Shown here piece after piece: positions 1-37,739 of a stretch of DNA of 64,000 bases. The stretch is from Dipteris shenzhenensis (lineage: Eukaryota). The stretch lies in the NCBI GenBank assembly GCA_047967505.1, contig CM106538.1; one strand, given 5' to 3'. Each line of letters opens with the position of its first letter. The first letter of the stretch is position 1. The position numbers were made by a program, and so were the translations under genes. The notes under the pieces are model-generated. The model saw only the letters and a program-made list of their open reading frames with translations, was not told the DNA's origin and did no database searches.

Positions 1-227
1 CCCCCACCCCCACCGCCCAACATGTGGCTCATGCCACATGTGCCTCCCCCACCCCCCAACATATGGCTTGAGCTACATGTGCCCCGCCCAAAACATGTGC
101 CATGAGCCACATATGGCTTAAGCCACATGTGCCCCCCATGTAACGTGAGCCACATGTGCCCCCCCCCCCCCCCCCCAACATATGGCTTGAGCCAGATGTC
201 TCCCCCCCCCTGGCATGAGCCACATGT
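1..227. repeat. Array of palindromes ACAT(G/A)TGGC-(T/A/G)TGA-GCCACATGT separated by poly-C runs (array A, copy 1; continues beyond the window start)
   Basis: Repeated acatgtggctcatgccacatgt / acatatggcttgagccacatgt units; colinear with ~16814-17034. Confidence 0.9.
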
Positions 228-229
228 TT

Positions 230-6200: not shown

Positions 6201-6335
6201 GGATAACATACCTAGTAGGCTCGTGTTTTTTTACGGATGTGCATGACACTAGAGCAAAATTAGTATTTAATGCTCGATCGACCATGCAAAGGATAACTTG
6301 GCATGTCCATCCGATGAGTACTTGATCGGATAACT
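230..6335. repeat. ~182-bp tandem satellite (~33 monomers) with a 3-mer (~546-bp) higher-order repeat
   Basis: The cat(g/a)(a/t)cac motif recurs at ~182-bp spacing (e.g. 428, 610, 789, 971, 1153). Three monomer types cycle A-B-C. Each monomer has internal dyad symmetry (gatggg..actttgca..ctagg..tgcaaagt..cccatc). Confidence 0.97.
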
Positions 6336-6459
6336 TCTCCCACCATTAAATTAAGTACTAATTAAAAATTATAATAAATGAGTAGATTATTAAAAAGAGA
6401 CTAATATTTATGTAATTGTTGCTACTGCAGCTTGCTTGTGAAGGACTCTCACAAAGGAG

Positions 6460-9400: not shown

Positions 9401-9931
9401 CAAATGTTCATAACGATTTGCGCCCAGCTCCAGTCTTTGAAAATGAATTTGTATCATTACTCCCACGTCCATATTGTGGACCGAAGAAGAGAGAGTTTAT
9501 GCCACAAGTAGATATAGAGGTCGATTGTTTTGTTGTGGTTCGGCCATCGGATGATGAGTATGAGAATGTGAAGTTTTGGGTTGCAAAAGTAGTTGATGTG
9601 CAAAGAGATGACCAAGGGAGAGCTACAACATTTACAGCGGTATGGTATGAGCCAAAGGGCAGGAAGGAGAATATGGATAACAACACATTGTATACTAATT
9701 GTATAACGAAGGAGTGGGTCCCAAATGATGAAGCGATCTCTCAAGTTTCGACAGAGACAATCATAGTGTCTTGGCATTCAAGGGCAAAGAAATCAAAGAA
9801 GCGCATGGGATATGAGGTAGAAGGAAAAATAAAAATACCACAGCAAACTATTTTTGCATATACACGAATATTTAAGGATGCTCGCCATGGAGGAAGTAGA
9901 AGGAGACAGCGCAAATGAAGAATGTCCATGA
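6460..9931 (+). pseudogene. Sola-like DDE transposase pseudogene (~1,150 codons) with an N-terminal Tnp1/En/Spm-like domain, Cys-rich motifs and a C-terminal beta-rich domain
   Basis: ORFs starting at 6652, 6988, 7498, 8446 and 9355 are all in one frame, broken by about 7 point stops and a probable frameshift near 9850. Motifs: VVAFATIHNSDP..HF..LG..ETLGD..W, CCKRRC, KMSKCNVC, IVDGMDQ, QADNCWRENKN, VGHIHEDIDQ, FWVAKV..WYEP. Acceptor-like ctactgcag ends at 6430. Confidence 0.85.
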
Positions 9932-10049
9932 TTAAATCTTTGTATTGAAGTCCATTGAAGGATTTTATTTGGGTACTAGGCAAGAAGCCAATCCAAGATA
10001 ATTATAATCAGAGTCATCACCTCCTATGTCAAATGAGAGTTAAAATATG

Positions 10050-10390
10050 CACTGGATGTCACCCAAGGGTCAAGGCTTGCCAAGACAATAGGGAGTTAAT
10101 GCAGATGGCACCTGGCAAGGGACTATCACATTGAGTAATAAGACAATGGGGAGTCAATGCACCCAAGGGGCAAGGCTTGGCAAGACAACTTGTGGGAGTT
10201 AATGCAGATGGCACCTGTATTTTACACTGGATGTCACCCAAGGGTCAAGGCTTGGCAAGACAATAGGGAGTTAATGCAGATGGCACCTGGCAAGGGACTA
10301 TCGCATTGAGCAATAAGACAATGGGGAGTCAATGCACCCAAGGGGCAAGGCTTGGCAAGACAAGTGGGAGTCAAATTATGCAGATGGCAT
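10050..10390. repeat. Two ~175-bp direct repeats with internal sub-repeats, downstream of transposase 1
   Basis: cactggatgtcacccaagggtcaaggcttg...gggagttaatgcagatggcacctg at 10050 and again at 10225. Confidence 0.9.
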
Positions 10391-11114
10391 GAATTGAGGC
10401 TCTTTAAGAGCAACAATTTAAATTGTAAACATATGTTCAATCTATATCATTTTGGATATAAAGACTCTAGCTGAGAGCAATGTCTCTCAATGTAATCATA
10501 TAATAATAGCTATAATTGCTATAATACCTCTTTGGTTCAATACAAAACTTGGGTCTTATGGCATCATGTCTTTTTTCTATTTATTAAAAGTTTTAAAAAT
10601 TTTGTGCATATTGCGAGTGACAATGTTATTTTCATGAAATATATTTAAGTCTCGTTTCATGGATTTATAAATTTATCACGTCCAGGAAAAACGTCAAGGA
10701 AAAATATTAAAAATAATTAAATTAACAAATAACTTAGATATAGCTAGAATTTCTAATATAGGATTATTTCAAATTCTTGCATGTTGGTGCAAACGTATAG
10801 ATTGAAAAAACAATATTTTTATGTGAATATGATAGTGCCACACAGTGAACTTTTGATTTGGGAATAATATTTTCAAAAAGTAAAATTTTGATTTGGGAAG
10901 GATATTTTCACAAAGTAAACTTTTCATTTGGGAAGGATTTTTGGGCTTCGTCCAAAAACAACAAAAAAAGTCCAAAATTAATGAAATAGGTGTTGTTTAT
11001 TGTTAAAAGCTTTGGGATTAATTCGTTTTAACATTCCACCGTAATGATTGAGGTCCCAAGGATGAATATCCGAATGGCTCACATGGAATAATACCCCATT
11101 GCCCTTCAGAGTTA

Positions 11115-15439: not shown

Positions 15440-15482
15440 CATAAACCCTAAACCCTAAACCCTAAATGCTAAATCCCAAATC
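15440..15482. repeat. Short interstitial telomere-like (CCCTAAA)n tract
   Basis: taaaccctaaaccctaaaccctaaatgctaaatcccaaa. Confidence 0.8.
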
Positions 15483-16011
15483 TTAACTCTCATCACTCAT
15501 CTACTCCCTTCTCATCTGCTCCACTGCTCACCCGCTCATCTTCACCATGCCTCCTAGCACCCCTCGATGCAACGTGATCCCAATGTTATTTACCTTCTCA
15601 TATACGATGATTGTGTTGCACTCACATGGAGTAGAAATGCTAGCTCTAGTGGACACCCTTTGTTCCCATGGCCAATTCCCCCCATATTTACATGTCACCA
15701 CCTTAGATGACATGCTCACCTTTGGCCTCTTTATGGTTGTCCTGTATGGGTTCCCCCTAGACGTCGATGAAGGCCTCAAGATTTTCACAGCAAAGTACTC
15801 TTGTCTTGTTGGGGAGGCCGTGATCTGAGTCCTAGCAATGTGTATGGTCTTCGGCCTCTCCATCATCTCCTCCATTGGCTCCCTAAAACTTTTCAATGCA
15901 ACAAGATGGGCTGGTGGCAATACTAAGTTGTACAAATTTCCTCTTACTCAACGAGGCTTATAACCACTCAGCAATGGCTTGATGTAATCTTTTCGCCTCT
16001 AAGGCTCTCAA

Positions 16012-17610
16012 ACATTGTATTTAAAAAAAAAAGGACTTGTATAAAGTCCAATTCCAAAACTGGACTAAATACAAGTCTAAAGTTGTTTGAATATCATAGA
16101 CCCATGGTTTTTTTTCCATATACTTCAAAACAAATATTGCAATAATGGTTGAAACTTTACACACCCACTTTATAGAGTAACCATTGGTAGTTTTCCTAGC
16201 AACCTTTGAAAACCCAAATTTTGTCAAATTACCAAATACTAGATAAGCTTACAGAAATACCTTCTATGATTAACCAAATAATTACACTTTGGTCGACACC
16301 ACATAGTTTTGAACCAAAGTCCAAAGTATATCAAGATGACTTGTTCTCTTGAGAGATGGTGTACATATACACCTTCTTTGTGTAAAAATACATTGTTTAA
16401 GTGTAGGCCTTTTGCAATTATAATTGGATGTGTGCTTGTTTCGACCAACTTTATGATGAAGGTTGAACCTTGTCCCCCTATATTGTCACTGGTGGGGAAT
16501 CCAAGTAGAAGCAAAAATTGCATGTAGAGGAGATGACTTTTTGTTATATATATATATGTATGTATGATTTGATATCAATTATAAAATTTTCCAAAAAATA
16601 ATTCAAAAAATGCAAAACTTTTTGAAGTTTTAAACATTTTTTCAAATATGTGGCTTGAGCCATATGTGCCCCGCAACTCCAAAACATGTGGCGTGAGCCA
16701 CATGTGCCCCCCCCCCCCCCCCCCCCCGCCCCGCCCAACATATGGCTTGAGCCACATGTGCCTCCCCCCCACCCCTCCCCAACATATGGCTTGAGCCACA
16801 TGTGGCCCCCTCGCCCCCACCCCCACCGCCCAACATGTGGCTCATGCCACATGTGCCTCCCCCACCCCCCAACATATGGCTTGAGCTACATGTGCCCCCC
16901 CCCCCCCAAAACATGTGGCATGAGCCACATGTGCCCCCCATGTAGTGTGAGCCTCATGTGCCCCCCCCCCCCCCCCCCCCAACATATGGCTTGAGCCACA
17001 TGTCTCCCCCCCCCCCCTGGCATGAGCCACATGTGCCCCCCCCCCTCCCCCCCCCCAACATATGGCTTGAGCCATATGTTCCCCGCCCCTCCCAAACATG
17101 TTGCTTGAGCCATATGTTCCCCCCAAACATGTGGCTTGAGTCATATGTGCCCCCACCCCCAAACATGTGGCGTGAGCCACATGTGTCCCCAATGCCTCCA
17201 AAAAAAAAAAGAAAAGATATAGAGTTAAAAAAAAACATGTGTGTTGATGGTATAGATTTAAAAAAAAAAAATCAAAAAATTTCCCGCCATTCCCCACTTT
17301 CCTAATTTGAAATTTGAAAAAATTTCCCACCATCCCTCTCTTTATCTATGGCGGGACAGAGGAGAGGGGAGGCGAGTGGAGGGGAAATTTCAAAAAAACT
17401 CCTGCCATTCCCCACTTCCCTAATTTGACTCTTTCCTATTTTGAAATCTATGGCGGGACATAGGAGAGGGGAAGCGAGTGAAGAGAAAATTTCAAAAAAA
17501 CTCCCGCCATCCCTCTCCTTGACATTTCAAAAAATTCCCCACCATCCCTCTCCTTGACTCACCTCCCCTCTCTCCTCTATCCCCCTACCATCCCTCTCCT
17601 TGACTCTTGG
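16012..17610. mobile_element. Non-coding remnant of the same DNA-transposon family (terminus-like segment plus palindrome array)
   Basis: 16012-16140 is an inverted, diverged homologue of the right end of the complete element (ggacttgtataaagtccaatt..ggacta..gtc..ttgaatat vs reverse complement of 35260-35392). It has the ggtgtacatatacacc subterminal motif (~16357) and array A. The other end was not found. Confidence 0.6.
16645..17185. repeat. Palindrome array A, copy 2 (ACATGTGGC-TTGA-GCCACATGT units with poly-C spacers)
   Basis: About a dozen units seen directly; G-run-rich on the minus strand. Confidence 0.92.
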
Positions 17611-18326: not shown

Positions 18327-19339
18327 GACTTTAGATTGATACCCTTAGGTCATAAGGGATAAAAACATTGTCTTAATTTTCCATGGTTTCAGGAAGAGTC
18401 CTTGGAGACATGCAACCCTTAGCACCCCTTTTGCTAGGAATGGGGTCTATTAACCCTTGGAACCCCTTTTGTTCGGTTTCATCGCTCATCATGACTTGTA
18501 TTGGTTGGGTGGATGAAACCTTTGTCACCCCTTTTTCTAGTGAAAGGGATGTGGAACACTTCATTAATCTTCTAGTGGCAAGGGCACTTTATCAACCTAC
18601 TGAAATGTACTAATGGTAGGATATGTTTCACCATGAAATCCTTGGTAGCATAGCATCAAGGGAAATAATTGTAATGCACATGAGCCTCTTGAAATCCAAT
18701 GGTTGTAGGAAATGCATGTTCTCAGATGGATGCCACCACGACCCCTTTCACACTAACAAAAGGGCGCAATGCACCATGTATATACTATCTATCTTTTTCA
18801 TTATGTATATACTTAGCGCACCATGCATGTACTCATATTTGGAATATAACCCTCTCTAGCTGTGTTTTTGTGTTGGGAGGTAATTTTGTTTCCTCTAAGA
18901 TTATTTCAACATTTGTTTGGATAGATTTTAATAAATATATCTTTTTACATCTCATCAATCCAAGCTACGGTTTGAGAGTTATGATCATTTTTAATTCTCA
19001 ACACACTATTCAAAATTTTGGGACTTTCTCTCCTGGTTTGGATTTTTTTTTTGGAGCATATCCTCTCCACTCAACTTCACTTAGTGAGCTCAAAAATTGG
19101 GTTTTTTAGAGCACTAAATGGTTCACTTATATACAAATATGGCCTTATTAAGCTAAAAAGTCAAGTGGTGAACTCTAATTAAAAAAAAAAAGGCTCAATG
19201 AAGCTATAATTCCCAAACTTGTGCATGGTGCCCCCATCCAATAACTATAATAATAATAATAGTAGTCTCCTAACTCTAGTTCAATTTTAACACTATGAAG
19301 TGAAAATATGACACCATATGAAAAGAGTTTGTTGAATTC

Positions 19340-19490
19340 AACATATAAGTGGTGTATAGATATACCATTTTTTTGAAAAAAAAGAGTTTGTTGAATTCAC
19401 TATATAAGTGGTGTATAGATACACCCTTTTATTGAAAAACAAACCATACAAAACATTATCTTATTGGTGGTGTATAGATACACCATTTGT
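19340..19490. repeat. Left subterminal palindromic motifs GTGGTGTATAGATACACC (3 copies)
   Basis: Inverted counterparts (ggtgtatatgtacaccactt and variants) at ~34950-35220 near the right TIR. Confidence 0.75.
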
Positions 19491-19517
19491 ATGGAAAAAA
19501 GCATACAAAACATTATC

Positions 19518-22500
19518 TTATGCATCTGAATCTCGTTCAGAGTCATCAGATTCATGTAATGTATTTGCGCTTGATGGGTTAAGTCTTGCCAAATGATGTT
19601 TAATATGGACACGACTTGGATCACGGATTGTGATACATTTTTCAACATTGTATCCACGCTTCATTTTAAAACTTCGTGTCCTCGATTTCCAGCAATGAAT
19701 AATGCTAGTGACTTCCATCTCTGTTAATCCCTTATTATTTGGAAACCATTCATGTTTCTTTTGCAAGCATATCTCATAGAGTTGTTTTATTGTATATCTT
19801 CTCGGGAGATTTTTCAATGGCTTTGGTTCATACCATAAAGCTGTGAATGTTATAGGAGTTCCCTTGTCATCCCTTTCTATCTTAGCAACCTTTGCAACCC
19901 AAATTGGGCCACCTTGGTCATCCAACTCTGAACTTGGATTAGATGCCCAAACTACAACAAATAGACCCTCTTCAATCTCATTAGATGGTATAAACTCTGG
20001 TAAGGGTTGTCTCCCTTCCTACCACAATATTTTCGAGGTAAAAGGTATTCCTCTACTTCCTCCATATCTACTAACATATTTATATCCAAAGGAAAACTTG
20101 GTGACCTAGCTTGTTCCGGCCAAAAGGATTCATAGTATTCAATGCTCATTAAGTTTTCTTGTCTTTCTAAAGATTGGATAAGTGCTTCAATTGATTTAAT
20201 TGTCTCCAAATTCTTAGTTGATTGCTTGGGATATTTCTGCATCATACTTTGAAGATGTTTAATGAAGGCTTTCAAGCCTTTCATTTCATCTATGTCAAGT
20301 GATTTGTTTTTTGCAAGAACAAATCTAGTTTCCTCTAATGAATTATTTGTTGTAATAAAGCATATGACTCACTCCATAAATGATCTCCATCTACTAAGTA
20401 GTGCTTCCATTGCATCATTGGAATATTGTTATGCATGTGAAACCGAAAGTAGTGTGGATTTGTGTGTCTTATTAGGGCATCATCTCCTGTTTGTAAATGT
20501 GGCTCTATGAATGCTCTCCAATCTGCCATACTCTCTAAGATAGCCACTTCTGATTCTTCCTTGCGAGACCCTCCAATTTTTTTCCCAATTCAAAATAGCA
20601 TATCCTCCATTGTCAAAACATCCATTGACTTCAACTCATCCGAGATAACACTGAAGATTTGATCTGTCTTCATGTGTATGGCTGACAAGAAGAAAGCCAA
20701 CTTCCACTTCTTCAAATATTTTCAAACCAACCAGCATAGAGCATAAAACAAATATATATTTATTTTTGTTCTCTCTCCAACAATTATCAACTTGTATTCG
20801 CAATATGTTAGGTAAACATCCACGAGCATCTGTGACCTTTCTTATTGCTTTCATGATTGATGTAACAACCTGGTTACTATCATGGTCATGCAAACTATCA
20901 ATCCATACATCACAAAAGATTCGGTATCCATGTACTAATACTCCACAAAAGTGTGTTTTTAGTCCACGTTTGCCCTCCAATGCTAGTGGGACACATCTAT
21001 ATCGTGGCAAAGTTGTTTTATTCTGGTCCATGCCATCAATGGTGATGCACATGGACTTATCGACATATGAAATAGCTTCCTCTCTCCAAGAAGCATACAA
21101 CTTTCGAGCATCCTGCACATGACGTAAATGGATTGATCGCCATTTAATATATCTTCCTCGCTGCTGCTCACATTTACTATGTTTAATGGCATTTTTAAAT
21201 TCATCACATGTCTTACATTTTGACATCCTTTGCTTTGATGGTGTCTTGACATGGAAAAAATCTCTAGGCCAAATTTTGTACAAGGTTGATTGTGAAATCA
21301 TGCTCTCGTCTCTATCTTATAAAGTTTTATTGACAGTTTCTAGTAGGCCAAATTTTATACAAGGTTGACTGTGAAATCATGCTCTCGTCTCTGTCTTGTA
21401 AAGTTTTATTGACAGTTTCTAGGATGACCTTCTTTGTCATTCTCGAAGGAAGATGTTGTTGACATTTGACACGTCCATCTAGCATTGTTTGTTGAAGATG
21501 AGGCTGTGGTAATGCATGGTCTTCGAGAACTTGCTTTAATGTTGCAATTGCATTTATAGTGCTTCCATGGCATTTAAGCTTGTAGGTATTTCCATGAATT
21601 ATATGAACTACTTTTTCTTTCACCTCTGCTCAGATGGTCCAGTATGTGCCATGTGATAGTCCAGTTAAGCATTGATATCCTCGATTGCAAATGGGTCTCC
21701 CATTAACCATGGGTTTCAATCTAGGTTTACAGTGTCTTGTGCTCAAATCTTGATCAGTGCCTTGAAGAAGAAAGCATAAAAACTCTTGAAGAAGATAATT
21801 ATGTCTATTAGGGGCTGTCTTACTCCAAATACCAAGGCGTATGGCTGGACAATCATCTTTCCCAACTTTTCTAATGCAAAGTCTCTTACAACAAACTTGC
21901 ATAAGCATCCTTTCCATATTCTCCTCGGATAACATTACATGTCTCTTTGGTTTTGGAATTGATGCCATGATTCTTTGCCTCTTCACACTCACATACTTTC
22001 TTTTTGTAAACAGTGTCTTGCATTTTCCAGTTATAAGACCATTAAACCTCGAATCCATTTCCCTTGAATCTTCATCTCTTTAATCAAATGCTGTGTGGGC
22101 TTGAGAATTATTTGATGCCTTATAATATCTTGAAAATGGCAATCTGGTAGACATGTTCATTGATGTCAATTTGTTGCCAATGCCTCTTGAATTTTGTGGT
22201 TGAACTCTTTCTCCTTCGTAACTCAAGATTCTCCCATCTATATTCTCTGGCATGCTAGCAACAATATTACAAACAACATGACAAGTCTTAGATTCTCTGC
22301 CCCCTTTGCCTTGCATTCGAGTGGTAACATCATGATCATTGTCACTAATATCATCAATTCCTGTTATTGCATCACTTATCCCATCGATCTTTGCATGTAT
22401 TTTTCTTTGTGGTCCCATCTTATTATTCTCAACACAAGACAAGTCTTTTATATTAGTAAGCATGTTTGAGTCACTTGCAACACACGACAAGTCTTCTATA

Positions 22501-23394
22501 CCAGTGAGCCTATTCGAGTCACTTGCAACATAGGACAAGTCTTCTATACCAGTGAGCCTATTCGAGTCACTTGCAACACAGGACAAGTCTTCTATACCAG
22601 TGAGCTTGTTCGAGTCACTTGCAACACAAGACAGGTCTTCTATATTAGTGAGTATATTTGAGTCACTTGCAATACAAGAAACCTTTTCTGCATCAACATC
22701 TTTTATTCATAATATCCTCAATACCTATGAGGATGCCACTATGATACTCTTGATCACTACTATAGCTTCTTATCAATTTGGATCCCATTTGTGTTATAGT
22801 CCTTTTCTTCTAATAATATTCTGTTGTGTCTTCCGTGACATTGAAGGAAACTGTCTTGAGCAAACTTGATTTCAAGAAAGCTAACCCCCATTTACAAGTA
22901 CTATGAACTTGTAGATGATGGACGTCTAGATGTGAAGTACTATCCATTGCATTTTGAATGACACCTACACTAGTCAACTTAATTATCTCCACTATATAGA
23001 GAAAACTCTGAGCATAGCCCTTAAAGTTGCCAATTGCTAAAACTTCTATGGAGCAAGATAACATCTCTACTTTTTCCCCCTCAAAATAAGTTTTCTTTAT
23101 ATCTTGAAAGTATGTCTTTGGAACAATTTCGTCTTAGTCCCAGAGCGTTCTGTGTGCTTGCATATCAAATATGTCACATTGTAAGATATCTCCCAATGTT
23201 TCAAAGTCTCCATGTGGATATTTTAAATGTACTTCAGGATTTACAATGTTGGTGATTATCACTACACATCTTCTCTTACCACAACGTTGGAAATGACACA
23301 CATTCATAGGATCAAGACTATGAATTTGTCCAAAAGCCACCACTTTATTCTTCTTATATAACACCACATCCATACCCTCTGTTAGGGTGAATAC
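19518..23394 (-). pseudogene. Sola-like DDE transposase pseudogene, homologous over its full length to 6460-9931
   Basis: VVAFGQIHSLDP..CHF..G..HLKYPHGDFETLGD, CCKRLC, RMSKCKTC, TIDGMDQ, KTHFCGVLVHG, QVDNCWRENKN, SHTHED, HTNPHYFRF, IWVAKV..WYEP. Several stops and frameshifts, plus a ~79-bp internal duplication at 21266-21422. Splice acceptor ctaat..acag ends at 23395. Confidence 0.87.
22440..22680 (-). repeat. 48-bp coding minisatellite (16-aa repeat SCVASDSNRLTGIEDL, ~5 copies) inside transposase 2
   Basis: gagtcacttgcaacac...acaagtcttctataccagtgag repeated every 48 bp. Confidence 0.92.
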
Positions 23395-23504
23395 CTGTTT
23401 TATGTACAAAAATAGATTAGCAACTCAAAAAAAGACAATAAATAATCGTTGAGCTTATTATTACTTTAAACTTTAAACAATTAATACCAAAACATCTTAA
23501 CCAT

Positions 23505-23670
23505 CGTAAATCCTAAACTTTAAACATTTAATCCCTAAACCCTAAACCCAAAATCCTAAACTCTTAAACACTAAATCCTAAACCCTAAAACCTAAATCCA
23601 AAACTCTAAATCCAAAACCCTAAATCCTAAATCCTAAATCCTAAACCCTAAACCCTAAACCCTAACCCTA
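23505..23670. repeat. Degenerate (CCCTAAA)n telomere-like tract, left arm of the foldback cassette
   Basis: ccctaaaccctaaa/tcctaaa repeats. Confidence 0.92.
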
Positions 23671-23699
23671 AAATAAAACCAAAATTTAATGATTTTTTT

Positions 23700-24850
23700 A
23701 AATTTGTGCAACAAGTTGGCAGGTTGGGGGGTATATCCAACCTGTTGCACAAATCAAGAAACCTGTTGCTTGAGCAACAGGTTGGGGGGTATATCCAACC
23801 TGTTGCACAAATCAAGAATTTTCTTGATTTGTGCAACAGGTTGGATATACCCCCCAACTTGTTGCTCAAGCAATGGGTTGGGGTGACCCCAACCCATTGC
23901 TCAAGCAACGGGTTGGGGGTTATAGGTTGGGGTCAACCTAACAGGTTGGATATATCTCCCAACCTATTGCTCAAGCAACAGGTTGGTGTCCCCAGGTTGG
24001 TTATATGCAACAGGTTGGGGGATATATCCAACGTGTTGCACAAATCAAGAATTTTCTTGATTTGTGCAATAGGTTGGATATATCCCCCAACTTGTTGCTT
24101 AAGCAACATGTTGGGGTCCCGAGGTTGGATATATCCCCCAATGCAACAGGTTGGGGGGTATATCCAACCTGTTGCTCAAGCAACAAGTTGGGGTCAACCT
24201 AACAGGTTGGATATATCCCCCAACCTATTGCTCAAGCAATAGGTTGGGGTCCCCAGGTTGGATATATGCAACAGGTTGGGGGATATATCCAACGTGTTGC
24301 ACAAATCAAATTTGTGCAACACGTTGGATATATCCCCCAACCTGTTGCTCAAGCAACATGTTGGGGTCTCCAGGTTGGGATATATCCCCCAACCTGTTGC
24401 ACAAATCAAGAAATTTCTTGACTTGTGGAATAGGTTGGATATATCCTCCAACCTGTTGCTTAAGCAACAGGTTGGGTCCCCTATTGCTCAAGCAACAGGT
24501 TGGGTTCCCTGTTAATATATCCCCCAACCTGTTGCAAGTGGAACATGTTAATGGTGCACCTAATCTATTGCAAAAATCAAGGAATTTTCTTGATTTATGC
24601 AACAGGTTGGATATATTCCCCAACCTATTGCTCAAGCAATAGGCTGGGGGATATATTCAACCTATTCCACAAGTTAAGAAATTTCTTGATTTGTGCAGCA
24701 GGTTGGATATACCCCCCAGCAGTTGGGGGATATATCCAACCTGTTATATAAATCAAGAAAATTCATTGATTTTTGCAATAGGTTGGGTGCACCATTCACC
24801 TGTTCCACTTGCAATAGGTTGGGGGATATATCAAACCTATTGCACAAATT
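23700..24850. repeat. Palindrome array B built from the half-site AACCTGTTGC in alternating orientation
   Basis: Units acctgttgc-ttga/tcaa-gcaacaggt, caacaggttgggggatatatccaacctgttg and gcacaaatcaagaattttcttgatttgtgc. Confidence 0.93.
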
Positions 24851-24877
24851 GAAAAAAATCATTGGATTTTGGTTGTA

Positions 24878-25350
24878 TTTTAGGGTAAGGGTTTAGGGTT
24901 TAAGGTTTAGAATCTAGGATTAAGGATTTAGGGCTTAAGATTTAAGATTTAGTATTTAGGGTTTTGGGTTTATAATTATGGTTTTAGGGTTTAGGGTTTA
25001 GGGCTAAGGGTTTAGGATTTAGGGTTTAGGGTTTAAGATCTAGGGTTTAGGGTTTAGGGTTAGGGATTTAGGATTTAGCATTTAGGGTTTAGGGTTTATG
25101 ATTATTGTTTTAAGGTTTAGGATTTAGGGTTTAGGGTTTAAGGTTTAGTATATAAGGTCATGAGCTTAGAGTCTAGAATCTAGGGTTTAGGATCTGGAAA
25201 TTAGGTTTTAGAATTTAAGCTATAGGGGTTAAGGTTTAAGGTTTAGGGTTTAGGGTTCAGGGATTAGAATTGTTATATAAGTTTAAGAGCTTAGATTGTA
25301 TAACCTAAGATTTAGGGAACTTTAGGATTTAAGATTTAGGGTGTAAGATT
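24878..25350. repeat. Degenerate (TTTAGGG)n telomere-like tract, right arm of the foldback cassette
   Basis: tttagggtttagggtttaggg and variants. Confidence 0.93.
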
Positions 25351-26777
25351 TAAGGTATATAGACTATATAAAATATGCATTCCAAAGTATTTAGTTTAGA
25401 TATATAGACTATATATTATATGCTTTCCAAAGTGTTTTATTTATATCCAATATTACGTACCATCCTTTGCAAACGCTTTACTTTAAGTAATTATAAGTCT
25501 ACCTAGTCAAAGTATCCTATTGATTAGGGACAAGCACATAGGCTAAAAGCACACTGATTCATATTTTCTTACATTCATGTTGCATGGTGTATCAGAAGTA
25601 TGTGATAAGAAATATTCAAAAGAAAGATGTATTCAATATCATGGATATCTGGTGGTTGCTAAAGTAGAAAAATGATATGGATTCAATGATAGTGTAGTTT
25701 TGTGCAAAGCCTTAAACAAAGTTTAAGGCTTTTGCAAAGTATTACATATTGTAACAAAGATAAGCAAGTATGCTAAACCTCTTCAAGATTCTATGGTTTT
25801 AAATACCTACCTTACAAATGCATTATCTAATTCTTCATTCTTCGACTAACAAGTATTATACACATGGAAGAAAAGCATACATGCTAAAAGCACATGCGTA
25901 AAATTCAATATCTCCTCATTTTTTAAATTAATTCAATTCTTTGATTGACTACTTTTTAAAATTTAAAGGTTATTACTATATAATATACATAATTTTAAAT
26001 GTTATTAATGTATAATATTAATAATATATATATATTTATTTAAATTTATACAATAATTACATTATATTTATAATAGTTTTTAAGTTAATAATGTATATTT
26101 TTATTAAAACTAAAATTTAATATCTAGTTAATAGCAGGAAGAATATTATAGAGATTTTTCATATTAAGAACTATCTTACAATTGAAGAATAAGTATTATA
26201 TAAAGCACATATTTTCATTGTTATATTTTTTTAATTAATGTATTTATATAATAATTATATAATATTTATATTAATTTATAGATTAACAATATATATTTTT
26301 AGCAAAATTATATTTTAATATTAGTTAATAAAAAATTATTATATTATGGAGTAAAAATATTACAAATGGATTTCTCATATTAATTAAGTGTTGTAAGAAG
26401 AGTTTTTGGAGAGATTTATGGTTAAATTTTGTTTTGAAGTTGTTGCGTACGCAATAGGTAGGGAGGTTTGAGTGGTTTTGAGGTTGAGAGAGAAATTTGT
26501 AATAGATTGTTTTGTAATTTATTTTTTTTGAAGAATTATTGGGTGGCCAATAGGTTGGGAGAGTTTGAGTTTAAGAGAAATTTGTGACAATAGGTTGTGA
26601 GAGTTTGAGGTAAAGAGGGAAATTTGTGGGAAAAAAGATTTAATGCAAAAAATGATTTTTTGAAGTTGTTGCGTACGCAACAGGTTTTTGAGAAAAGAAT
26701 CGGATTTGAAAAAAAAATTCAAATTTACAAAAACTTGATTCTTAGAAGTTCTTGCGTATGCAATACGTTGGAAATGA

Positions 26778-27058
26778 ACTCACCTCTTGTAACATTTTGA
26801 AAATTTTGAGAATCATGCAATAGGTTGATGAGAGGAGAGAAGCGTGGAGTGTGAAATAATGAACTTTGAATGAAAGAGAGAGTGAAGAACGTTCTACTTA
26901 TAGTGAACCTAAAAGAACTAAAAACTAAAAAAAGCTAGCTTGACCTAAAAAAGCTGACTTGCCTGAAAAGCTACTCATTTCCTATAAAACTCTACTTCTC
27001 CTCATTCTCTCTTACAACTCTTCTTGAGCTCCTCCACCACCTCCCCACCCAGGTATTC
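26778..27058. promoter_or_regulatory. Putative bidirectional promoter with two short non-coding first exons
   Basis: Back-to-back TATA-like boxes: CTATAAG on minus at 26903-26897 and TATAAAA on plus at 26983-26989. Each is followed by a CT-rich leader and a splice donor (minus AG|GTGAGT at 26784/26783; plus CAG|GTATTC at 27052/27053). Confidence 0.55.
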
Positions 27059-27642
27059 TCTCTCTCCCTCCCTTCCCCTCTCCTCTCGCTTTCCATCCCC
27101 TCTCCTCCCACTCCCCTACTTCCCCTCTCCTCCCGCTTCCCCCTCCCCTCTCCTCCCTTCCCCTCCCCTCCCTTCCCTCTCCTCCCGCTTCCCCCTCCCC
27201 TCTCCTCCCACTTCCCCCTCCCCTCTTCTCCTGCATCCTCTCCCTCCCTCCTCTTCCCCTTCGGTCCTTTTTTTTTGTCTTTTCTTTTTGGAGTGGGGAG
27301 GCTGGGAGCAGAGAGACGAAAGGGCTTTTTTTTTTTGGGAGTGGGGAGGTAGGGACCGGTTTTGGGGAGGAGAGGTAGAGGCGGGGAGGTGGAGGAGAGG
27401 ATGGAGGTGGGAGTTGGGAGGGGGAGGTGATGGCGCGAGGGGGGAGGCAAAGGCGGGGAGAGGAAGGCGAAGGCGGGGAGGCAGGAGGGGGGACGGGGGA
27501 GGCGAAGGCGGGGAGGCAGGAGGGGGGACGGGGGAGGCGAAGGTGGGGAGGCAGGAGGGAGGCGGGGAGGGAGGTGGGGAAGCGGGGAGGGAGGCGGGGG
27601 ATGGGGAGGGGGACGGGGGAGCGGGCGGCGGGAGGGAGGAGG

Positions 27643-27748
27643 GGGGATTAACCCCTCCCCCTAACCTGTTGCGTGCACAACAGGTTAGGGGGGAGGGTTA
27701 ATCCCCTCCCCTAAGGCCCCTTAGGGCCCCTGTTGCGTGCGCAACAGG
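27643..27748. repeat. 64-bp near-perfect hairpin plus a second palindrome with the AACCTGTTGC core
   Basis: ggggattaacccctccccctaacctgttgcgtgcacaacaggttaggggggagggttaatcccc (27643-27706); cctgttgcgtgcgcaacagg (27729-27748). Confidence 0.9.
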
Positions 27749-28492
27749 AGGCTTGCAAGGGCCTTATTAAAAAAATTGAAAAAAAATTAAATTTTAAATA
27801 ATTTAAATAGATTAAAAAAATAAATTTAAAAAATTAGAAAAATAAATTATATTATATCAAATTTAAATAAAAAATTAAAATTAATTAAATAAAAAAAGTA
27901 AAAAAATAAAATTTAAATAAATAATTAAATTTAAATAATTTAAATAAATAAAATATTTTTAAAAAATAAAATAAATTAATTTAAAAATAAAATAAAATAT
28001 ATTAAATTTGAATAAAAAATTAAAATTTGAATAAATAAATAAAAATTAAAATTTTTTAAAGAAAAATTAAATTAAATTTAAAATATATAGATATATAAAT
28101 AAATAAATTTAAATAAATAAAATAAAATTAAAAAAAATCAAATAAAATTTTAGAAAATTTAAATTAAAAATTTTTATCTATGTTTATAAAATATTTTGAA
28201 TTAAATTATTTATGTAAAAAAATATTAGATACTATGTTTATAAAATATTTTGAATTAAATTATTTATGTAAAAAAATAGTATCTAGAAATATAAATATAT
28301 ATATTTTAAAATATATTTGAACGTTTAAAATTTCAATGAAATATATTTAAAAAAAAATATTTAAACTTTTGAAATTTCAATTAATTTTTGATTTTTGATA
28401 TTTAAATATTTAATTAGCAATTTTTTTATTATTTTGAGTTTGAAAATCATTGTAATTCTCATTTTTTGTTTTTGATTGCTTTGCAGAAAACT

Positions 28493-31400
28493 ATGGCTTC
28501 GAGTTTTGGTTCCAAGGTGTCTTTCAAATATCTTGAACATGCTTGGTATTTTATGGAGCACAAATCAAAGTATTTTTTAGTGATCACTGCCGAGAATGTG
28601 TCAAGCGTGAAATATTCTCCAGAGGCTACTAGTAAGAAATGGTGGCATGGTCTCAACCATCAACATTAAAGAAAAAATTTGATAGAACTTGTGTGCAAAG
28701 GGAAGAATGACGATGTGGTCTATAAGTTACGAGTTATGCCCAAGCACTTCTTGAAGCCCTTACCAGATTCAATTGAGGGATCCCAAGAATTACTTAGTGC
28801 CTTGGAAGCATTGAAGAAAATGTGGGATGTATTTCCAAGTGGTGGTGTTTTACCTTCAGTAGTAGTAGTAGTAAGTACACCATCTATAACATGTAGCCAT
28901 CAAGTTGTACCGCCAATATTTGTGGTGATACCTACGGTATCTCCAACAAGAGTAACTACAAAATCTACGGCAGTAACTACAATATCTCCAACTATACCTA
29001 CACCATCGACTGCTGCAACTACAGGAATAAGAAGGAGTGATCGTGGAGCAGATTCAAGTTCCACAGCTATTCCCAAAAAGGGAGCCAAAATAACTCCTAC
29101 TCCATGTGCAGATCGTTCAAGTGTAGGTTATTTAAAACCAGGTGAAAAATTGGATAGTGATGATCAGGAGGGTCCGCAAGAAGAAGATACAAGTCTTGCA
29201 GACTTTTCTATAAGTGTGGCAGACTTACATCCTCCAGAGGATGAGGGGTACATTTGGGGATTTTCACAATTGAGCGTGGCCACAATGCTTATTAATCGAG
29301 CTTCATTGTTCACAAATCAAAGAAAGCTAGATAAGACATTTGCATGCAAATTGTATGAAGATATGAGGAAAACAAGAACTCCAGTTGCCACTAATATCAC
29401 TCTTCATCCTATGGCATTTAAGAGACTTTAAGAAGATGATCCTACATTGCCTGATGTCACATTTCAAAAGCGCATGGACTTTCTTGATGCTTTTGAGAAC
29501 TTTAGAAGAAGTGACTTTGTTCGTGAAGAGGCTTTGTACCAAAGCCGATATGGGACTGATATTGAGAAGAGATACATGTTGGCAAAGAATAGATTCTTGG
29601 AAAGATGCAGGTTTGAGCCCATTGATGGGCAACACTTTTGTGAAGCTTGCAAGATCGCCCTTGATGAGGGAAGAAAAGGAAACTTGCCATAGGTTGAGTG
29701 GATGGAAAGGTTTCAATGGGTCATTTGTCATGTATACATATTTAACGATCACTCGAAGTACATTCTAGAATCAGAAAGGTTGAATTCTGTTCCATTTAGG
29801 TTGAAAAAAAGCTCTTCTCTTTCTGAGATCCTGATAAAGGCAAGGGAGTTATGGGTGGGCTGTGGAAAGCCACAAACAGTGATGGGCAAGAGACCTACAT
29901 CTGAGTATATGGCAAAGAGGACTCGGTTCTATAGATGCTTGAAAGGTGTTGTAAGCAATATGCAAGGCGTACCAAGTAATAAGGTTGAGGCAAAGGATTT
30001 GAACACCGCCGTTGCAAGATACATGGATGTTACTTGCATTGTCTTCCGCGAGGACTCAGTGTTTCAGAGCATGATGGATGTTTGCTAAGCATATGAAATA
30101 GGAAAGATACCCTTTGAGGCACCAGAGCACACTGCAACTCAGATGAAAGAAATGATGAAACCGATGTCTATTGTTTGGTGGAGAGCATTAAGGTTTGTCC
30201 CAGATGTAATAATAGAAATATTATGCAAGAAGATCCTAAGCAGTGACTGCTTCTTTGGAAAGAAGAGCAAGCATAGCAACTTGGATGAAGTGGTCACTCG
30301 AATGATTCAAAGTGAGGCTGCTCTCTCGGCACTATTTCTTTTATTGAAATCTGATGATGAGTTAGCTGGCAAGTCAATTGACGTGGATAAGAAGAAAGCA
30401 CTTAGCCTAGGTCAACTCCTTGATAAGACATGGGCTAGAAAGTGGTTGGCTTCAATGGATGCAAATGCCACACCAAAAAAGGATCTAAGAGCTAAAATGC
30501 CAAAGGTTGTTGAGACAGAATATATGGACATCAAGAAAAAGGCCTTGCAATCCACTACCCAAGGTAGAGCAATTGGTTGTTTACATGATGGTTCTCCATT
30601 CAACTTCTCCTATGATATCTTGCTATCAGAGAATGATACAAAATTTGACACATCAATGGCATTGATACAGAGCATTTCATAACAATGAGTGGTCATGCTT
30701 GGGAGAAGCCATGTGTATTTTTCATAGATGAATTGCAAGACCTTGCAGTGTCACAGATAGTTGAACTTGTGCGGTTTATCATAGAAGGTCCTATGGCAGA
30801 TAAGAAAAGATCAACGTTGGTCCTGTTCATGACAGAATCACAAAGGGATGCTTTGACATCTGCACTTGGGTATTTACTTTCAAAAGTATACCATTGTATA
30901 GTCCTATGCAATCATATGATTGTCTTGGAAGGCACTGCCATTCAAGTCTTGTAGCCTTTCTTGATGTGCTTCTTATCCAGGGGTGGTGGCAATCTAATCA
31001 AAATTCCTTTAAGGACTCTCAAGCTTCATTACTTTGAGGACAATAAGGTTAAGCTTGATGCAACAATGGTGGATTATAGAAAGCCTATGCATCCTGATGT
31101 GATACTAGAGATGACAAAGAATTTACTGAATCATGGGTGGGAAGTAGCATTGTATCGAATGGGTTTTGCTGCTGAGAAATTGCTATGCCAAGGTAGAAAT
31201 GTAAATGTCATTGATACCCCCAATCCAATTGAGTTTTTTGACACATATTACAGTTGCACTACCTTCTTTGAAGAGGAAAATGTCAAAGAAGAGGGTAGTG
31301 AGGAAAATGTTGAAGACGAGGGTAGTGAGTCTGAGGGTGATGATTCTAGCTCAGGTGATGATGAGGATGAAAGCTCTGAATCCAATGACTTATGCCAAGA

Positions 31401-34400
31401 AGAAATCCACACAAAGAATAAGGGTGATAAATTGTCAACTAGAGTCAAGGAGGTTCCACTCATCATACAAGAAGGCCTGCGACAGTAAGAAGTAGTAGTA
31501 CAGCACGTCATAGGAAAAGGTAAGTCTAAAGAGGTGGAAGCACTTCCCTTGAAATTAAAAGTGAGGAAGGCTATTGAGATATGGTGCCATGAGCACATAG
31601 ATTAAAGGGCAAAGGTATGTGATAAGGAATGTATTAAAGTAGCCACCCTAAGATGTGGACTACATGATGTGGAGATGTGGATTGAGGATATCCACAAGGA
31701 GAGATGTGGATGAGAGGATCACACATGTGTTGACTATTCAAAGGGCACTCTCTATATAAGAAGTCTATCATGTATTGTTGAGAACACACATTGCAAGAGA
31801 TATAGATTTTCTATCTCCCTCTCATGTCTTATTCAATGTGCTTTGAGCCTCCTTAGTTCTTCTGCTAATCTTGTGTGCACTAGGCTAGTACGATCTGCAC
31901 TTTGTCATGGTATCGGAGCTTAGGTCTAGTCTCCTAGATTAGTTGTAAGCTTGCCTTAGGAGAACATGTTTTCTCCTAGGTTAGTTTTAGTTTTAGATTG
32001 AGAGAATTCCATCCATTGAATGAAAATTCTATTCATTGCTTTGAGATATTTTTGTCATGCCTGATGAGAGAGAGAGAGAGAGAGAGTTCCTTTTAGAGAT
32101 CTATTTTGTGAGATAAATCTGTGAGGAGATTGTTGAGCCTCAGATGGTGTCCTAGCAAATAGACAGTCATGAAGGCAGCATGGTAGACAGAACGAACTGT
32201 GGGCTATGAAGAAGGGCAATTCGAGAAGCAGCACGAGTAGAAGCAATAGAAGAAGCCTCAAAGAACAATGGACAAGAAGATTTGAAGGACTGAAGTAGAA
32301 AGCTCTAAATGATAGCAGCGACCATCAACCTTCATCCGTGACCATTGTTTTCCTTTTTTGCAGCCCGCTAATGTAGAAGTCATTGATTTCCAAGACTATC
32401 CAAGTTTTGCAGTCCACAGCGCAACCCCTCAAGTGGATGGCTCATGAGCATCTACGCCACCAAATGCCCACATAGGTCTGTAGCTGATCGAGATCAAATG
32501 AGTGCTCTATTAGCAGCGATGCCAACATAAAAGACCGTCAGAGCTTTGAAAAGATGGCTGGATCTCAAGGCTTCCCAGACAACTCAGCTACATCGACCAG
32601 TGACACTCCAACGACCCTACCCAGCCAGCCCTGCTCCAATGTCGATCCTGATCTCTGCCTATACTACATAAGTGGCCGACTCCAACTCTTTATGCCATCT
32701 CCTCTACGAGTTGATGAAATGCAACGGATTGCTCCCTTCGTCACATGAGCTGCTAATGCTATCAACAGCCTTCCCTAGAGATACGGCTCATTTGTGACTC
32801 TAGCGTATGGACGCGAGGTCTACAGCACTAACAGATGAGCACTAACAGATGGTGCATCCTCAACTGACGCTCCGCTTGTAACCATGCGCACCCATTGAAG
32901 GCATCTGCTCTAGCGCCTCAGCATCTCCATAGATGGTTCTTGGTACCCACAGCCACGCTCCCTTGACACCACAATCAATGAGCCCTACACTGTAGTAGCC
33001 GCCTTTGTGAAGACCATGTTCATTTCGAGCTTCACCATCTCTGAGCTTAGCGCCTCAAGGATCCGCCTCGCAATATCTATAATTCGTCTATCTAAGAGTG
33101 AAGATCAAAAGAGTAATTGCACCATATCTACGCCCATTATGATAGCTTTGGTCGACTTGACACCGAGTAAATGATTTATTCAGTGCTATCTCTAAACGGC
33201 CTGCTCTGCCTCTTCTGGAATACATCATAGGAGTAGAATACGACGATCTCTTCCACTGTCAATCTGCAAAAGAAACCGCGTCACCATATGCAAGCTTCAA
33301 AGCTTCAGAGTTTCTCAAAGTTGTCCTAAGGTTCACCAAAAAATGACACATGGTAGATAGCTTTTGACCTGGGTTAGTTCAAAGTAACCCTGGGTTAGTT
33401 TGGTGTGGTCAGTAAGTAGATAGGGTTGGTCAAGCCAAACTGATCAAGTCAACCCACTATACCATGGTTTATGTTATGGGGTTAGTTAAAAGTGCCACAT
33501 CACCACAGTGCCACCCAAGCACAATCCCTTACTAAGCACAATTTGTAAGCAGCATATGAATGCTTGTGCCACATCATCAAGGCCCCCTCTTCTTCATAGA
33601 AACTTCGACAAGCCATAACTGCAATTAGATACTACCAATATTGAAAGAAATCAATTGGTAAGACCTTTGCAACAAATGACAAATCAAACATGAATGCACA
33701 CATCGGTGTCATAAGCATGCCAAAAGCGCAAGTGTATGAGATGACCATAGCCCGAAACATGGCATCCACACATAAAGTATTAAGGCACATGGAAGAACAA
33801 AGCATCATGAAGCGATGAAGATGACATCGACATCATGTATTGAGAAGCAACATCCTTTCCATCTTCAGTCCATATGTTTGTAAAACAAACCTGACCACCT
33901 GAGAGTAGCTATGAAAGCACCCAGGGGAGGATTTGATCTTGTAAAAACCACACTTGACCACCTTATGTAGCAAGGTATGCACTAAGGGGAGGTGATGGAT
34001 TTGTAACTCTCATCTGATGACCTTGCAGTAGCCAAAGGATCATGGCACCAAGGGGAGGTGTTGAGATATGGTGCCATGAGCACATAGATTAAAGGGAAAA
34101 GGTATGTGATAAGGAATGTATTAAAGTAGCCACCCTAAGATGTGGACTACATGATGTGGAGATGTGGATTGAGGATATCCACAAGGAGAGATGTGGATGA
34201 GAGGATCACACATGTGTTGACTATTCAAAGGGCACTCTCTATATAAGAGGCCTATCATGTATTGTTGAGAACACACATTGCAAGAGATATAGATTTGCTC
34301 TCTCCCTCTCATATCTTATTCAGTGTGCTTTGAGCCTCCTTAGTTCTTCCGCTAATCTTGTGTGCACTAGGCTAGTATGATCTGCACTTTGTCAAAGGCA

Positions 34401-34742
34401 CCCTTGATCTTGGGTGAAGGACATGCAAGTGGATCAAATAAGGAAGCCTTACCCAAAGAAGGTATGGACGAGGCAAAGCATGACCAGGAGGAGTTACTAG
34501 GAGGCATAGATGGTTCTTCAACCATGACCTTACAGATTCCAGAGCAGCCTACTAGTCAGGTGCTTGGAACTGAAGAGCAAAATACTGAGGACCTTGCTAC
34601 TATGACTCCAGTCTTAGAGCAGCCTATTAGTCAGGACCTTGGTAGTCAAGGGCACCTTGAGGACATTGGTACTGTCTTAGAGTAGTCTATTAGTCAAGAC
34701 CCTGGTAGTCAAGGGCCTGGCATTGAGGAACATGATGGCTGA
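28493..34742 (+). pseudogene. Transposon accessory gene (~1,130 codons) with ParB/DGQHR-like motifs, a possible degenerate N4/N6-MTase-like region and an acidic tail; interrupted by an LTR element at 31572-34394
   Basis: ORFs at 28466, 28679, 29447, 29702 and 30143 share one frame; 30685 and 30961 share the next. After removing the LTR element the frame continues (VRKA|PLILGEG). Motifs NQRKLD and FEPIDGQHFCEA (29621-29635). Acceptor tttgcag ends at 28486. Confidence 0.75.
31572..34394 (+). mobile_element. Non-autonomous LTR retrotransposon (336-bp LTRs at 31572-31907 and 34059-34394), TSD AAGGC
   Basis: Near-identical LTRs (T(A/G)TTGAGA...TTTGTCA), PBS TGGTATCGGAGC at 31908-31919, PPT AAGGGGAGG at 34050-34058, AAGGC at 31567-31571 and 34395-34399. 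No gag/pol ORF. Confidence 0.95.
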
Positions 34743-35825
34743 TGGCTTTGTTATCACAAGTTTTGAACTTCTCAAGTTTTAGACTTCTATGTAAAGCGAA
34801 TATCTAATAAAAAGTTAACTACTCTTTTAATTTCTTTACTCTCACTATTGTGTATAAAGATTGTTTATGAGGTCCATTTTATACTTAATGGTGCATTTTA
34901 AACTTTATGTCAATGTATTTTTATAGTTAAGGGTGTTTTTTAATACCAAGTGAGGTGTATATGTACACCACTTACACATAAAAGGATTTAATATGTACAC
35001 AACCTTTCTAAGGGGTTTTTGTCTACTATCTTTCTAAGGGGTTTATGTACACCACCTTTCTAAAAGAAATGGTCATAAAGGTGTGCACACCACTTATACA
35101 TAAAGGTGTTTATTTACACCACCTTTTTAAGAGAATTGGTCATCTATTGATGTTCTTAGGTGATAGTAGCTCAACTCATAAGAAGTTATGAAGATGTTAA
35201 TGTAGACCACCTTTGTAAGAGATTTGGTTATGCATTGATGTTCTTAGTATGTAATCACCAAATCTTTTGTTTTGAGTTGTCAAATCTAGTTCAAAAAACA
35301 ATATTACTAGTATATTCAAAAAATTTGGACTATTTTTTAGTCCATTTCTCAAATTGGACTTTACACAAGTCCAAAAATTTTGAATAGTGTGTTTCTCATC
35401 ACATCTCCACAAACCCTTGGCAATGGTGAAAAGATACTAATGGGGTGAAAGGATACGAGAAGGATGCAAAGACTTAATTTTGATTTCATGGCTAGATAGA
35501 AAAAAAAATAACATACTTTTTCTTTATTCAAAATCTTATTTTTGATTGCATGGCTAGATAGAGCAGAAAAATTCCATTAAAAAAAAAAAAAAAACAAGTC
35601 ATCAATTCGAGCTACGATTTGAGAGTTATGACCATTTTTTTACCATCATTACACCTCCATGGAGCCTTTCATTGGAGAAAGGGTCTTATAAGGATGAAAA
35701 ATATTATCTTGACTACTGATTAGATGGAGCACAAAAATTACATGACTTTTTCTTTGTATAGCTCAGTAATCTGAACTAAGGTTTGAGAGTTATGACCCAT
35801 TTTTTACATTCATCACATCTTTATG

Positions 35826-37061: not shown

Positions 37062-37113
<52 letters not shown>

Positions 37114-37700
37114 TCTCTTTCTCGCTCTCTTTCCTCTTCCTGACTCTGTCTTTTCCTTCTTTCCCTCCTCTCTTATTTTCTCTCTCTCCTCTCTTTCTTG
37201 CTCTCTCTTTCTTCTTCCTCGCTCTCTCTTTCTCTCTTTTTCCCTCTCTCTCTTTCTCTTCTCTCTTTTCCTCTCTTTCTCTCCTTTGTTCTCTCTTTTT
37301 CTCCTCTCTTTTCCTCTTTCTCGTTCTCTCTTTCCTCTTCCTCGCTATCTTTTTTCTCTCTTATTTTCTTTGTCTCCTCTCTTCCTACTCTTATTATCTC
37401 CTCTCTTTCTCTCTTTCTTTCCTCTTCCTCCCTCTTCTCTTCCTTTCATTCTTTCCTGTTTCTCCCTCTTTCTTTCCTTTCTTCCTCGCTCTCTCTTTTC
37501 CCTCTTTCCCTCCTCTCTTTTCCTCTATTTTCTCTCCTCATTTATTTTCTTTCTCTCCTCTCTTTTCCTCTCTTTCTCTCTTTTTTCATCTCTTTCTCTC
37601 CTCTCGTTTCCTCTCTTTCTTACTCTCTCTTTCCTCTTCCTCACTCTCTCTTTCCTCCCTCATGCTTTTCTTACTTTTTGCTTTTCTATCTTTTCGTGTT
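35826..37700. repeat. ~1.9-kb polypyrimidine (CT-rich) low-complexity tract with degenerate sub-repeats
   Basis: Almost entirely C/T on the plus strand; recurring ctcctactcttctttctcttctctcttttcctc. Confidence 0.95.
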
Positions 37701-37739
37701 TCCATCTTTCCTCATTTTTTGTCTTTATGTGAACTTTCC

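Follow-up and report, generated by a model that had tools for sequence, protein, structure and literature searches.

An old, structurally complete, coding-dead DUF7869 transposon, most probably of the Sola type, in Dipteris shenzhenensis

Introduction

Sola elements (Sola1, Sola2, and Sola3) are DNA transposons that encode a transposase of the three-aspartate (DDD) type and generate target-site duplications (TSDs) of 4 bp. According to their published description, they are 2-9 kb long, with some exceeding 15 kb, and carry terminal inverted repeats (TIRs) of 11-1124 bp (PMC10741241). They are present in the moss Physcomitrella and in many animals and are rare in flowering plants (PMC10741241, PMC9804982, PMC9033089). 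The GingerRoot/IS3EU elements of bryophytes and lycophytes generate 6-bp TSDs and encode an integrase-related transposase, and GingerRoot is described as having TA..TA (rarely TG..CA) termini, TIRs of 100-150 bp, and a length of 3.9-12.9 kb (PMC6839031, PMC10045372). Here, we describe a real 16.4-kb cut-and-paste TIR DNA transposon at positions 19001-35392 of a 64,000-nt stretch of contig CM106538.1 from the plant-type genome of Dipteris shenzhenensis. This whole stretch is referred to as the window, and the element is the one complete copy within it.

The element resembles Sola in its DDD-type transposase, the triad of which is near-invariant in 80 related loci, in its TIR-bounded structure and variable size with some examples above 15 kb, and in its highly variable TIRs. 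Its ends are compatible with a 4-bp TSD, although the longest flank repeat found here is, unlike that of Sola, 6 bp. We regard it as an old, structurally complete, coding-dead DUF7869 transposon that most probably belongs to Sola (DDD transposase, 4-bp TSD), a reading to which we assign a probability of roughly 0.7.

Results and discussion

The two ends of the element agree at 25/26 bases in inverted orientation, and the 26-base terminus pattern is matched twice in the window compared with 0 times in 100 shuffles (coordinates of all features are collected in Table 1). The left junction reads ...TTAATTCTCA followed by ACACACTATTCAAAATTTTGGGACTT, the right junction reads AAGTCCAAAAATTTTGAATAGTGTGT followed by TTCTCATCAC..., and TTCTCA abuts the TIR on both sides. 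The flanks are part of a local repeat and, when joined, align across the junction with two repeat units located 200-400 bp downstream of the element, both of which are uninterrupted and contain a single target copy. Because these empty-site paralogues exist, chance pairing of two unrelated TIRs is ruled out. The initial annotation of this DNA had described the TIRs with 1 mismatch, the TTCTCA on both sides, and an empty site restoring a local repeat, all of which we recovered. It had also called the element complete, which is correct with respect to structure but not to coding capacity, as both genes contain stops and frameshifts and a long terminal repeat (LTR) element is nested in the second gene. 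Directly downstream, positions 35800-37840 consist of about 2 kb of C/T-rich tandem repeats (GC skew -0.71, AT skew -0.76), and these strongly strand-biased units resemble the target region of the element.

The catalytic core is encoded by the pseudogene on the minus strand. Its open reading frame (ORF) at 20636-21316 (-) matches Pfam PF25273 (DUF7869) with 118.8 bits (E 2.8e-34; curated cut-off 26 bits), in agreement with the earlier placement of the core in the DUF7869 group, and the same domain is carried by 34/34 proteins found with the core, several of which are intronless and about 1,050 amino acids (aa) long. No Pfam domain besides DUF7869 was found in five full-length relatives. The Atlas neighbours of the transposase are DUF7869 clusters, 22/30 of them from animals, mostly arthropods and tardigrades. 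Of the 589 pattern matches on metagenome contigs, 328 encode transposase relatives, and 80 loci were kept for comparisons; on viral contigs, none of 80 pattern matches was a relative. Three aspartates are conserved among the 80 loci kept (D505 in 77/79, D587 in 79/80, and D629 in 79/79), and these sit in DGMDQ, (Q)ADN, and GHTHxxIDQ, respectively. Since position 626, the E of "HED", varies (D in 41 and E in 28 of 80 loci), the catalytic triad is D-82-D-42-D. Very long TIRs can also occur at a DUF7869 locus: inverted repeats of about 515 bp at L030:17-530 and 9306-9819 are 90% alike and reach the contig end.

The transposase gene encodes, in order, an N-terminal beta domain, a coding repeat of five 48-bp units, the catalytic core, and a C-terminal chromo/PWWP-like domain. 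When aligned to full-length relatives, it is fragmented across three frames. A 79-bp tandem duplication shifts the frame, a 2-bp deletion inside the HTHEDxDQ motif leaves the third catalytic motif frame-shifted, further frameshifts occur near 20340 and at 19955-20018, and in-frame stops are found at 22080, 21630, and about 20590. The 48-bp tandem repeat of the N-terminal region (22430-22679; 5.2 copies, 89% alike) is in frame and encodes SCVASDSN(R/K)LTGIEDL units.

An AlphaFold2 (AF2) model of the relative P0019 (mean per-residue confidence score, pLDDT, 70.5; core 80-95) predicts an RNase-H fold for the core, closest to Mos1 and integrases. Matches to the modelled core include Mos1 (4mdb_A; Z 8.8, root-mean-square deviation 3.7, 166 aligned), Metnase (3k9j_A; Z 8.8), retroviral integrases (Z 7.2-8.3, PFV integrase being at 8.3), and IstA (Z 8.0). 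Foldseek of the model against the PDB returned RNase-H-fold rows only, at E>=1e-3, and a transposase profile had no match below E 0.2 among PDB sequences. The C-terminal domain of the model weakly resembles PWWP/chromo folds (Z 5.4-6.1). The best superpositions of the predicted core are found among Tc1/mariner (Mos1, Metnase) and IS630-like DDE/D enzymes (Z 8.8-9.1), with which it also shares a second aspartate in the (Q)ADN context and a third acidic residue about 40 residues on. Unlike these systems, the element has no TA target, no sequence similarity to them, a far larger protein with additional domains at both termini, and a second gene.

The superposition on retroviral integrases also bears on membership in GingerRoot/IS3EU, the 6-bp TSD superfamily that had been left out of the list of plant superfamilies considered initially (PMC6839031, PMC10045372). 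An integrase-like RNase-H fold, a non-seed-plant occurrence, a multi-kb size, and a TSD that can be read as 6 bp would suit this assignment, but the termini are (A)ACAC...GTGT(T) and neither TA..TA nor TG..CA, and the TIRs measure 26-27 bp as opposed to the 100-150 bp described for GingerRoot (PMC6839031). In addition, no Pfam rve match was found in the window ORF at E<=0.1 or in five full-length relatives at E<=1, and the integrases do not outscore Mos1 and Metnase. As such, it is very improbable that the element is a GingerRoot/IS3EU member.

We take the motif series DGMDQ / DNC.RENKN / GH.HEDIDQ to be associated with a Sola-like core. The Sola-like catalytic core proposed from these motifs is also the best fit to our results, as the three invariant aspartates match the published DDD description (PMC10741241). 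We infer the equation of DUF7869 with Sola from the DDD triad and this description; the name DUF7869 itself returned no papers in the literature searched. CACTA/EnSpm (CMC) was considered and rejected. The string CACTA is present at TIR bases 4-8, but the outer ACA/TGT is inverted, so there is no 3-bp TSD, and no Tnp2 domain is present.

The A at position 19000 can pair with the T at 35393, and the ends can thus be read in two ways, either as a 26-bp TIR with the 6-bp TSD TTCTCA or as a 27-bp TIR (AACAC...GTGTT) with the 4-bp TSD TCTC. The empty site is identical under both readings, so the paralogues cannot choose between them. The terminus of a diverged copy in the window (copy 1, described below) also starts with AACAC, and in a distant DUF7869 family (L002/L004/L006) 4/4 ends start with AACAC(C/T)G, preceded by four different flank bases (c, g, t, and a). 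Under the 4-bp reading, the match of two further flank bases has to be a chance event (roughly 1 in 10, given the base composition here), whereas the 6-bp reading needs a TSD that starts with T and ends with A, a copy 1 flank that ends with A, and a coincidental AACAC in the distant family. Judged from these termini, a 4-bp TSD appears to be favoured at odds of about 3:1. The apparent 6-bp TSD, which had been taken to place the element outside the known plant superfamilies, is probably a boundary artefact, AACAC...GTGTT with a 4-bp TSD being at least as consistent with the data.

If the 6-bp TSD were genuine, the element could instead represent a separate, undescribed lineage at the superfamily level, with ACAC termini and a second gene that is obligatory. 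The direct repeat TTCTCA is perfect over 6 bp and immediately adjacent to the 26-bp TIR, and the 4-bp alternative carries the cost in chance matches given above, but A19000 and T35393 lengthen the TIR, the AACAC start is common to copy 1 and to all four distant-family ends, and the TSD length comes from one copy. Likewise, the lack of papers on DUF7869 in the literature searched and of a Pfam or NCBIfam family for gene 2 would be expected of such a lineage, yet the DDD triad fits the published Sola description (PMC10741241) and DUF7869 clusters are frequent in animals, as reported for Sola. We consider a new lineage distinctly unlikely and retain the probable assignment to Sola.

Inside the TIRs, the 16-bp palindrome GGTGTAN4TACACC has 6 matches at <=1 mismatch compared with 0.09 expected, in line with the inverted subterminal GGTGTA..TACACC motifs noted at the outset. 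All 6 are found at distances of about 290-470 bp from an end of either the element or a remnant near 16 kb. These palindromes are candidate transposase-binding sites, and repeated subterminal motifs are also a feature of CACTA elements.

The initial annotation had recognized two divergent genes, and both are present. Gene 2, on the plus strand, has a total of about 1,120 codons. Stops interrupt its frame at 28667, 29429, 29690, and 30086, the frame shifts near 30649-30680, and two more stops follow at 30952 and 31486. Its DGQH-motif domain, which is conserved, maps to about 29000-30232, and 8/8 homologues tested match the window only at 29003-30232. Among 1.84 billion representatives, HMMER detected 27 relatives at E<=1e-3, of which 11 reach E<=1e-10 and 2 reach E<=1e-30; the relatives include fragments that are 88-92% identical and proteins of 1097-1488 aa, and the Atlas neighbours are unnamed Streptophyta clusters with 62 and 55 members. 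Conserved core motifs are TNQR..L, TLRPI, and EP(V/I)DGQH..AC. The relatives have no Pfam, NCBIfam, or PDB sequence match, a Pfam search of six frames of 25500-35392 gave nothing at E<=0.01, and a word-index search with the gene 2 ORF at 30089-30682 gave no match.

A structural model of gene 2, in which the N-domain has a pLDDT of 70-95, weakly matches PadC (6ryk_B; Z 4.5, root-mean-square deviation 3.6, 80 aligned), SerK (5x0b_A; Z 4.2), KorB (8qa8_A; Z 3.8), sulfiredoxin (6ky4_A; Z 3.6), and SbnI (5ujd_A; Z 3.5). We take SerK and SbnI to have a ParB/Srx-type fold, which is N-terminal in this group of proteins and comes with a (D/E/G)G.H motif. The ParB/Srx-type matches are tied with unrelated B12-binding-type helical proteins (Z 4.2-5.2), and Foldseek returned nothing below E 0.4, the rows for beta-class adenine methyltransferases at E about 3 not being evidence. 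Gene 2 is a member of an unannotated streptophyte family, and its N-domain is, based on the model, possibly ParB/Srx-like. The pairing of a transposase with a second protein, presumed to function in DNA binding or complex assembly, is reminiscent of PIF/Harbinger (ORF1 and transposase) and CACTA (TnpA and TnpD); in contrast to both, the proteins here are unrelated to theirs, and no Pfam Tnp2, Transposase_21/24, or Myb-like match was found.

The second gene had been viewed as a peculiarity of this element, but divergent second ORFs recur in its relatives. Upstream of the transposase, 9/14 of the longest relative loci contain an opposite-strand ORF of at least 250 aa. Seven of these nine (L002, L003, L005, L009, L020, L021, and L022) belong to one family, are 48-97% identical, and are not independent; L025, outside the nine, carries a member of the same family on the transposase strand. 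This L002-type family (8 loci including L025) consists of proteins of about 560-590 aa without a Pfam family. The second ORFs of L030 and L079 differ from it, and no significant homology was seen among the second ORFs of these lineages. The L079 ORF (L079:1095-5099 (-), 1335 aa) is divergent from the DUF7869 transposase at L079:5499-8339 (+) and contains a beta-class DNA methylase domain (PF01555, E 1.9e-18; DpnA, 1.2e-5), upstream of which a VIEGMHRVRAW motif is reminiscent of ParB-type domains. Comparisons by hhalign gave probabilities of 0.3 for the gene 2 family with ERZ-type second ORFs and 0.8 with the L079 second ORF, neither of which is significant, and 1.6 for ERZ-type second ORFs with that of L079, a motif-level match only. 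The divergent two-gene layout seems to be a trait that recurs among DUF7869 elements, and we hypothesize that a ParB-like accessory protein may be shared across the second ORFs. In a more far-reaching version, DUF7869 elements would in general combine a DDD transposase with a divergent, fast-evolving ParB/Srx-fold accessory protein (methyltransferase-bearing in L079), and the streptophyte branch would be an undescribed one with its own accessory family and possibly a 6-bp TSD; we consider this version doubtful.

Several observations count against our interpretation and should be weighed together. The likeness to Sola is one of the DDD triad and of published description. The longest direct repeat at the ends of the element is 6 bp, in one complete copy. 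L002, the sole distant locus with AACAC at both ends, shows no TSD of any length, and a 4-bp flank repeat occurs in only L039 among 6 inverted-repeat pairs of relatives with both flanks present. Altogether, 7 inverted-repeat pairs were inspected in metagenome loci: L039 has AAAA (4 bp, low complexity), L047 has TTT, L020 lies at a contig end, and L002, L023, L076, and L027 have no TSD. Because the flanks of metagenome assemblies may be chimeric, the distant loci are uninformative with regard to TSD length. For gene 2, the ParB/Srx-like signal (Z 3.5-4.5) is under the stated noise level of the tool, no homology to the second ORFs of relatives was detectable, and no homologue was found by tblastx in the visible 11 kb of copy 1 or the rest of the window, or by tblastn in the 80 relative loci.

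These absences would be explained if gene 2 were a passenger, either a host gene that had been captured or an unrelated element nested there, that lies outside the transposition machinery. However, gene 2 is placed and oriented like the divergent second ORFs of the relatives, and it occurs in multiple copies in public data, as the 27 relatives with their 88-92% identical fragments and the two Streptophyta clusters attest. It also lacks TIRs and a TSD of its own and is decayed about as much as the transposase. Moreover, the window start cuts copy 1 exactly where gene 2 would lie. A passenger origin is thus unlikely in our view, and gene 2 is treated below as a putative component of the transposon.

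The insertion nested in gene 2 is a non-autonomous LTR retrotransposon. Its LTRs of about 336 bp begin and end with TG..CA and are identical at 325/334 positions (2.7% divergence), a tRNA-Met-type primer-binding site TGGTATCGGAGC and a polypurine tract are present, and the 5-bp TSD AAGGC is found at 31567-31571 and 34395-34399. No Pfam domain was detected in any frame. The LTR divergence, together with the decay of both genes, indicates that the host transposon is old. Under an assumed plant substitution rate, the nested insertion would date to about 1 million years ago.

The sequence between both genes contains palindromic 58/133-bp repeats over about 1.2 kb, enclosed by plant-type telomere arrays and followed by G/C-rich and A/T-rich low-complexity blocks. 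A short (CCCTAAA)n block is also present at 15432-15495, near the 16-kb remnant.

Table 1. Coordinates of the transposon, its components, and related copies in the window
Feature	Position	Strand	Remarks
Diverged copy 1	1..10993	+	Truncated by window start
Terminal remnant of third copy	16011..16373	+	16033-16113 is 78% identical to 35372-35293; palindrome at 16358
Left TSD	18995..19000		TTCTCA (6-bp reading); in the 4-bp reading TCTC at 18996-18999, then A19000 as first TIR base
Left TIR	19001..19026	+	ACACACTATTCAAAATTTTGGGACTT; 27 bp if A19000 is counted
Left subterminal palindromes	19351..19484		Three GGTGTATAGATA(C/T)ACC, 59-bp spacing
DUF7869 (DDD) transposase pseudogene	19521..23424	-	Read from about 23424 to 19521
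79-bp tandem duplication	21265..21422		2 copies, 94% alike; shifts transposase frame
Central repeat block	23507..25360		(CCCTAAA)n (23507-23685) and (TTTAGGG)n (24879-25360), degenerate and in inverted orientation
Gene 2 pseudogene, 5' part	28493..31571	+	Start M at 28493
Non-autonomous LTR retrotransposon	31572..34394	+	2.8 kb, nested in gene 2
Gene 2, 3' part	34400..34685	+	In frame across the nested insertion to stop at 34683
Right subterminal palindromes	34954..35120		At 34954, 35080 (variant), and 35105
Right TIR	35367..35392	-	1 mismatch to left TIR; 27 bp if T35393 is counted
Right TSD	35393..35398		TTCTCA (6-bp reading) or TCTC at 35394-35397 (4-bp reading)
Paralogous empty sites	35599-35659 and 35751-35820		Uninterrupted, one target copy each

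The window also contains other members of the family, and the earlier view that the element belongs to a family and is not an accident is well founded in this respect. The second, diverged copy that had been reported at the window start is confirmed by a related terminus, which reads (A)ACACCTATTTCATTAATTTTGGACTT on the reverse strand, and by a transposase about 50% identical in protein sequence to that of the main element. This transposase lies in one frame (6985-9918, bounded upstream by a stop at 6982) with in-frame stops at 7495, 8350, 8383, 9190, and 9328, and the motifs LIVDGMDQ, IQADNCWRENKN, and GHIHEDIDQ are intact. Just upstream, a 182-bp satellite of about 33 units (242-6295; 73% matches), unrelated to the repeats of the main element, takes up the region in which a second gene could be located. 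A remnant had been proposed at about 16.0-17.6 kb; the DNA match at 16033-16113 and the palindrome at 16358 substantiate its first part, but nothing beyond them was found by DNA comparison. Between copy 1 and this remnant, an ORF fragment at 11729-12241 (-) has a weak Abhydrolase_6 match (E 1e-6) and may be a host gene fragment. Elsewhere, Ty1/copia-type coding regions (gag, integrase, RVT_2) are located at 46627-50657 (+) and 56780-60877 (-), the second as a 1365-aa open frame.

We propose that the transposase would bind the termini of the AACAC type and, subterminally, the GGTGTAN4TACACC palindromes, excise the element, and join it to target cuts that are probably staggered by 4 bp (6 bp being less likely). 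Catalysis would be performed by the predicted RNase-H-fold core with its aspartates in DGMDQ, (Q)ADN, and GHTHxxIDQ, and the C-terminal chromo/PWWP-like domain may tether the transposase to chromatin. The divergently transcribed gene 2 protein, with its DGQH motif and possibly ParB/Srx-like fold, could act as an accessory factor.

Conclusions

The element most likely belongs to a known kind of transposon (DDD, DUF7869, Sola-type). It adds a record of a DNA-transposon lineage that is seldom annotated, here from a plant-type genome, and of a second-gene family that has no annotation. Linking DUF7869, a Pfam domain of unknown function, to three invariant aspartates and to a mobile element that is bounded by TIRs and duplicates its target gives this family a function. 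A complementary A/T pair at the boundary of an element can inflate the apparent TSD from 4 to 6 bp, and caution is required when transposons are classified by TSD length. Finally, the recurrent divergent second ORF, one example of which bears a DNA methyltransferase domain, provides a lead on accessory functions in the superfamily. If the general two-protein arrangement considered above were true, the accessory protein of DUF7869 elements would represent a novel type of transposon-encoded partner that clamps or modifies DNA.

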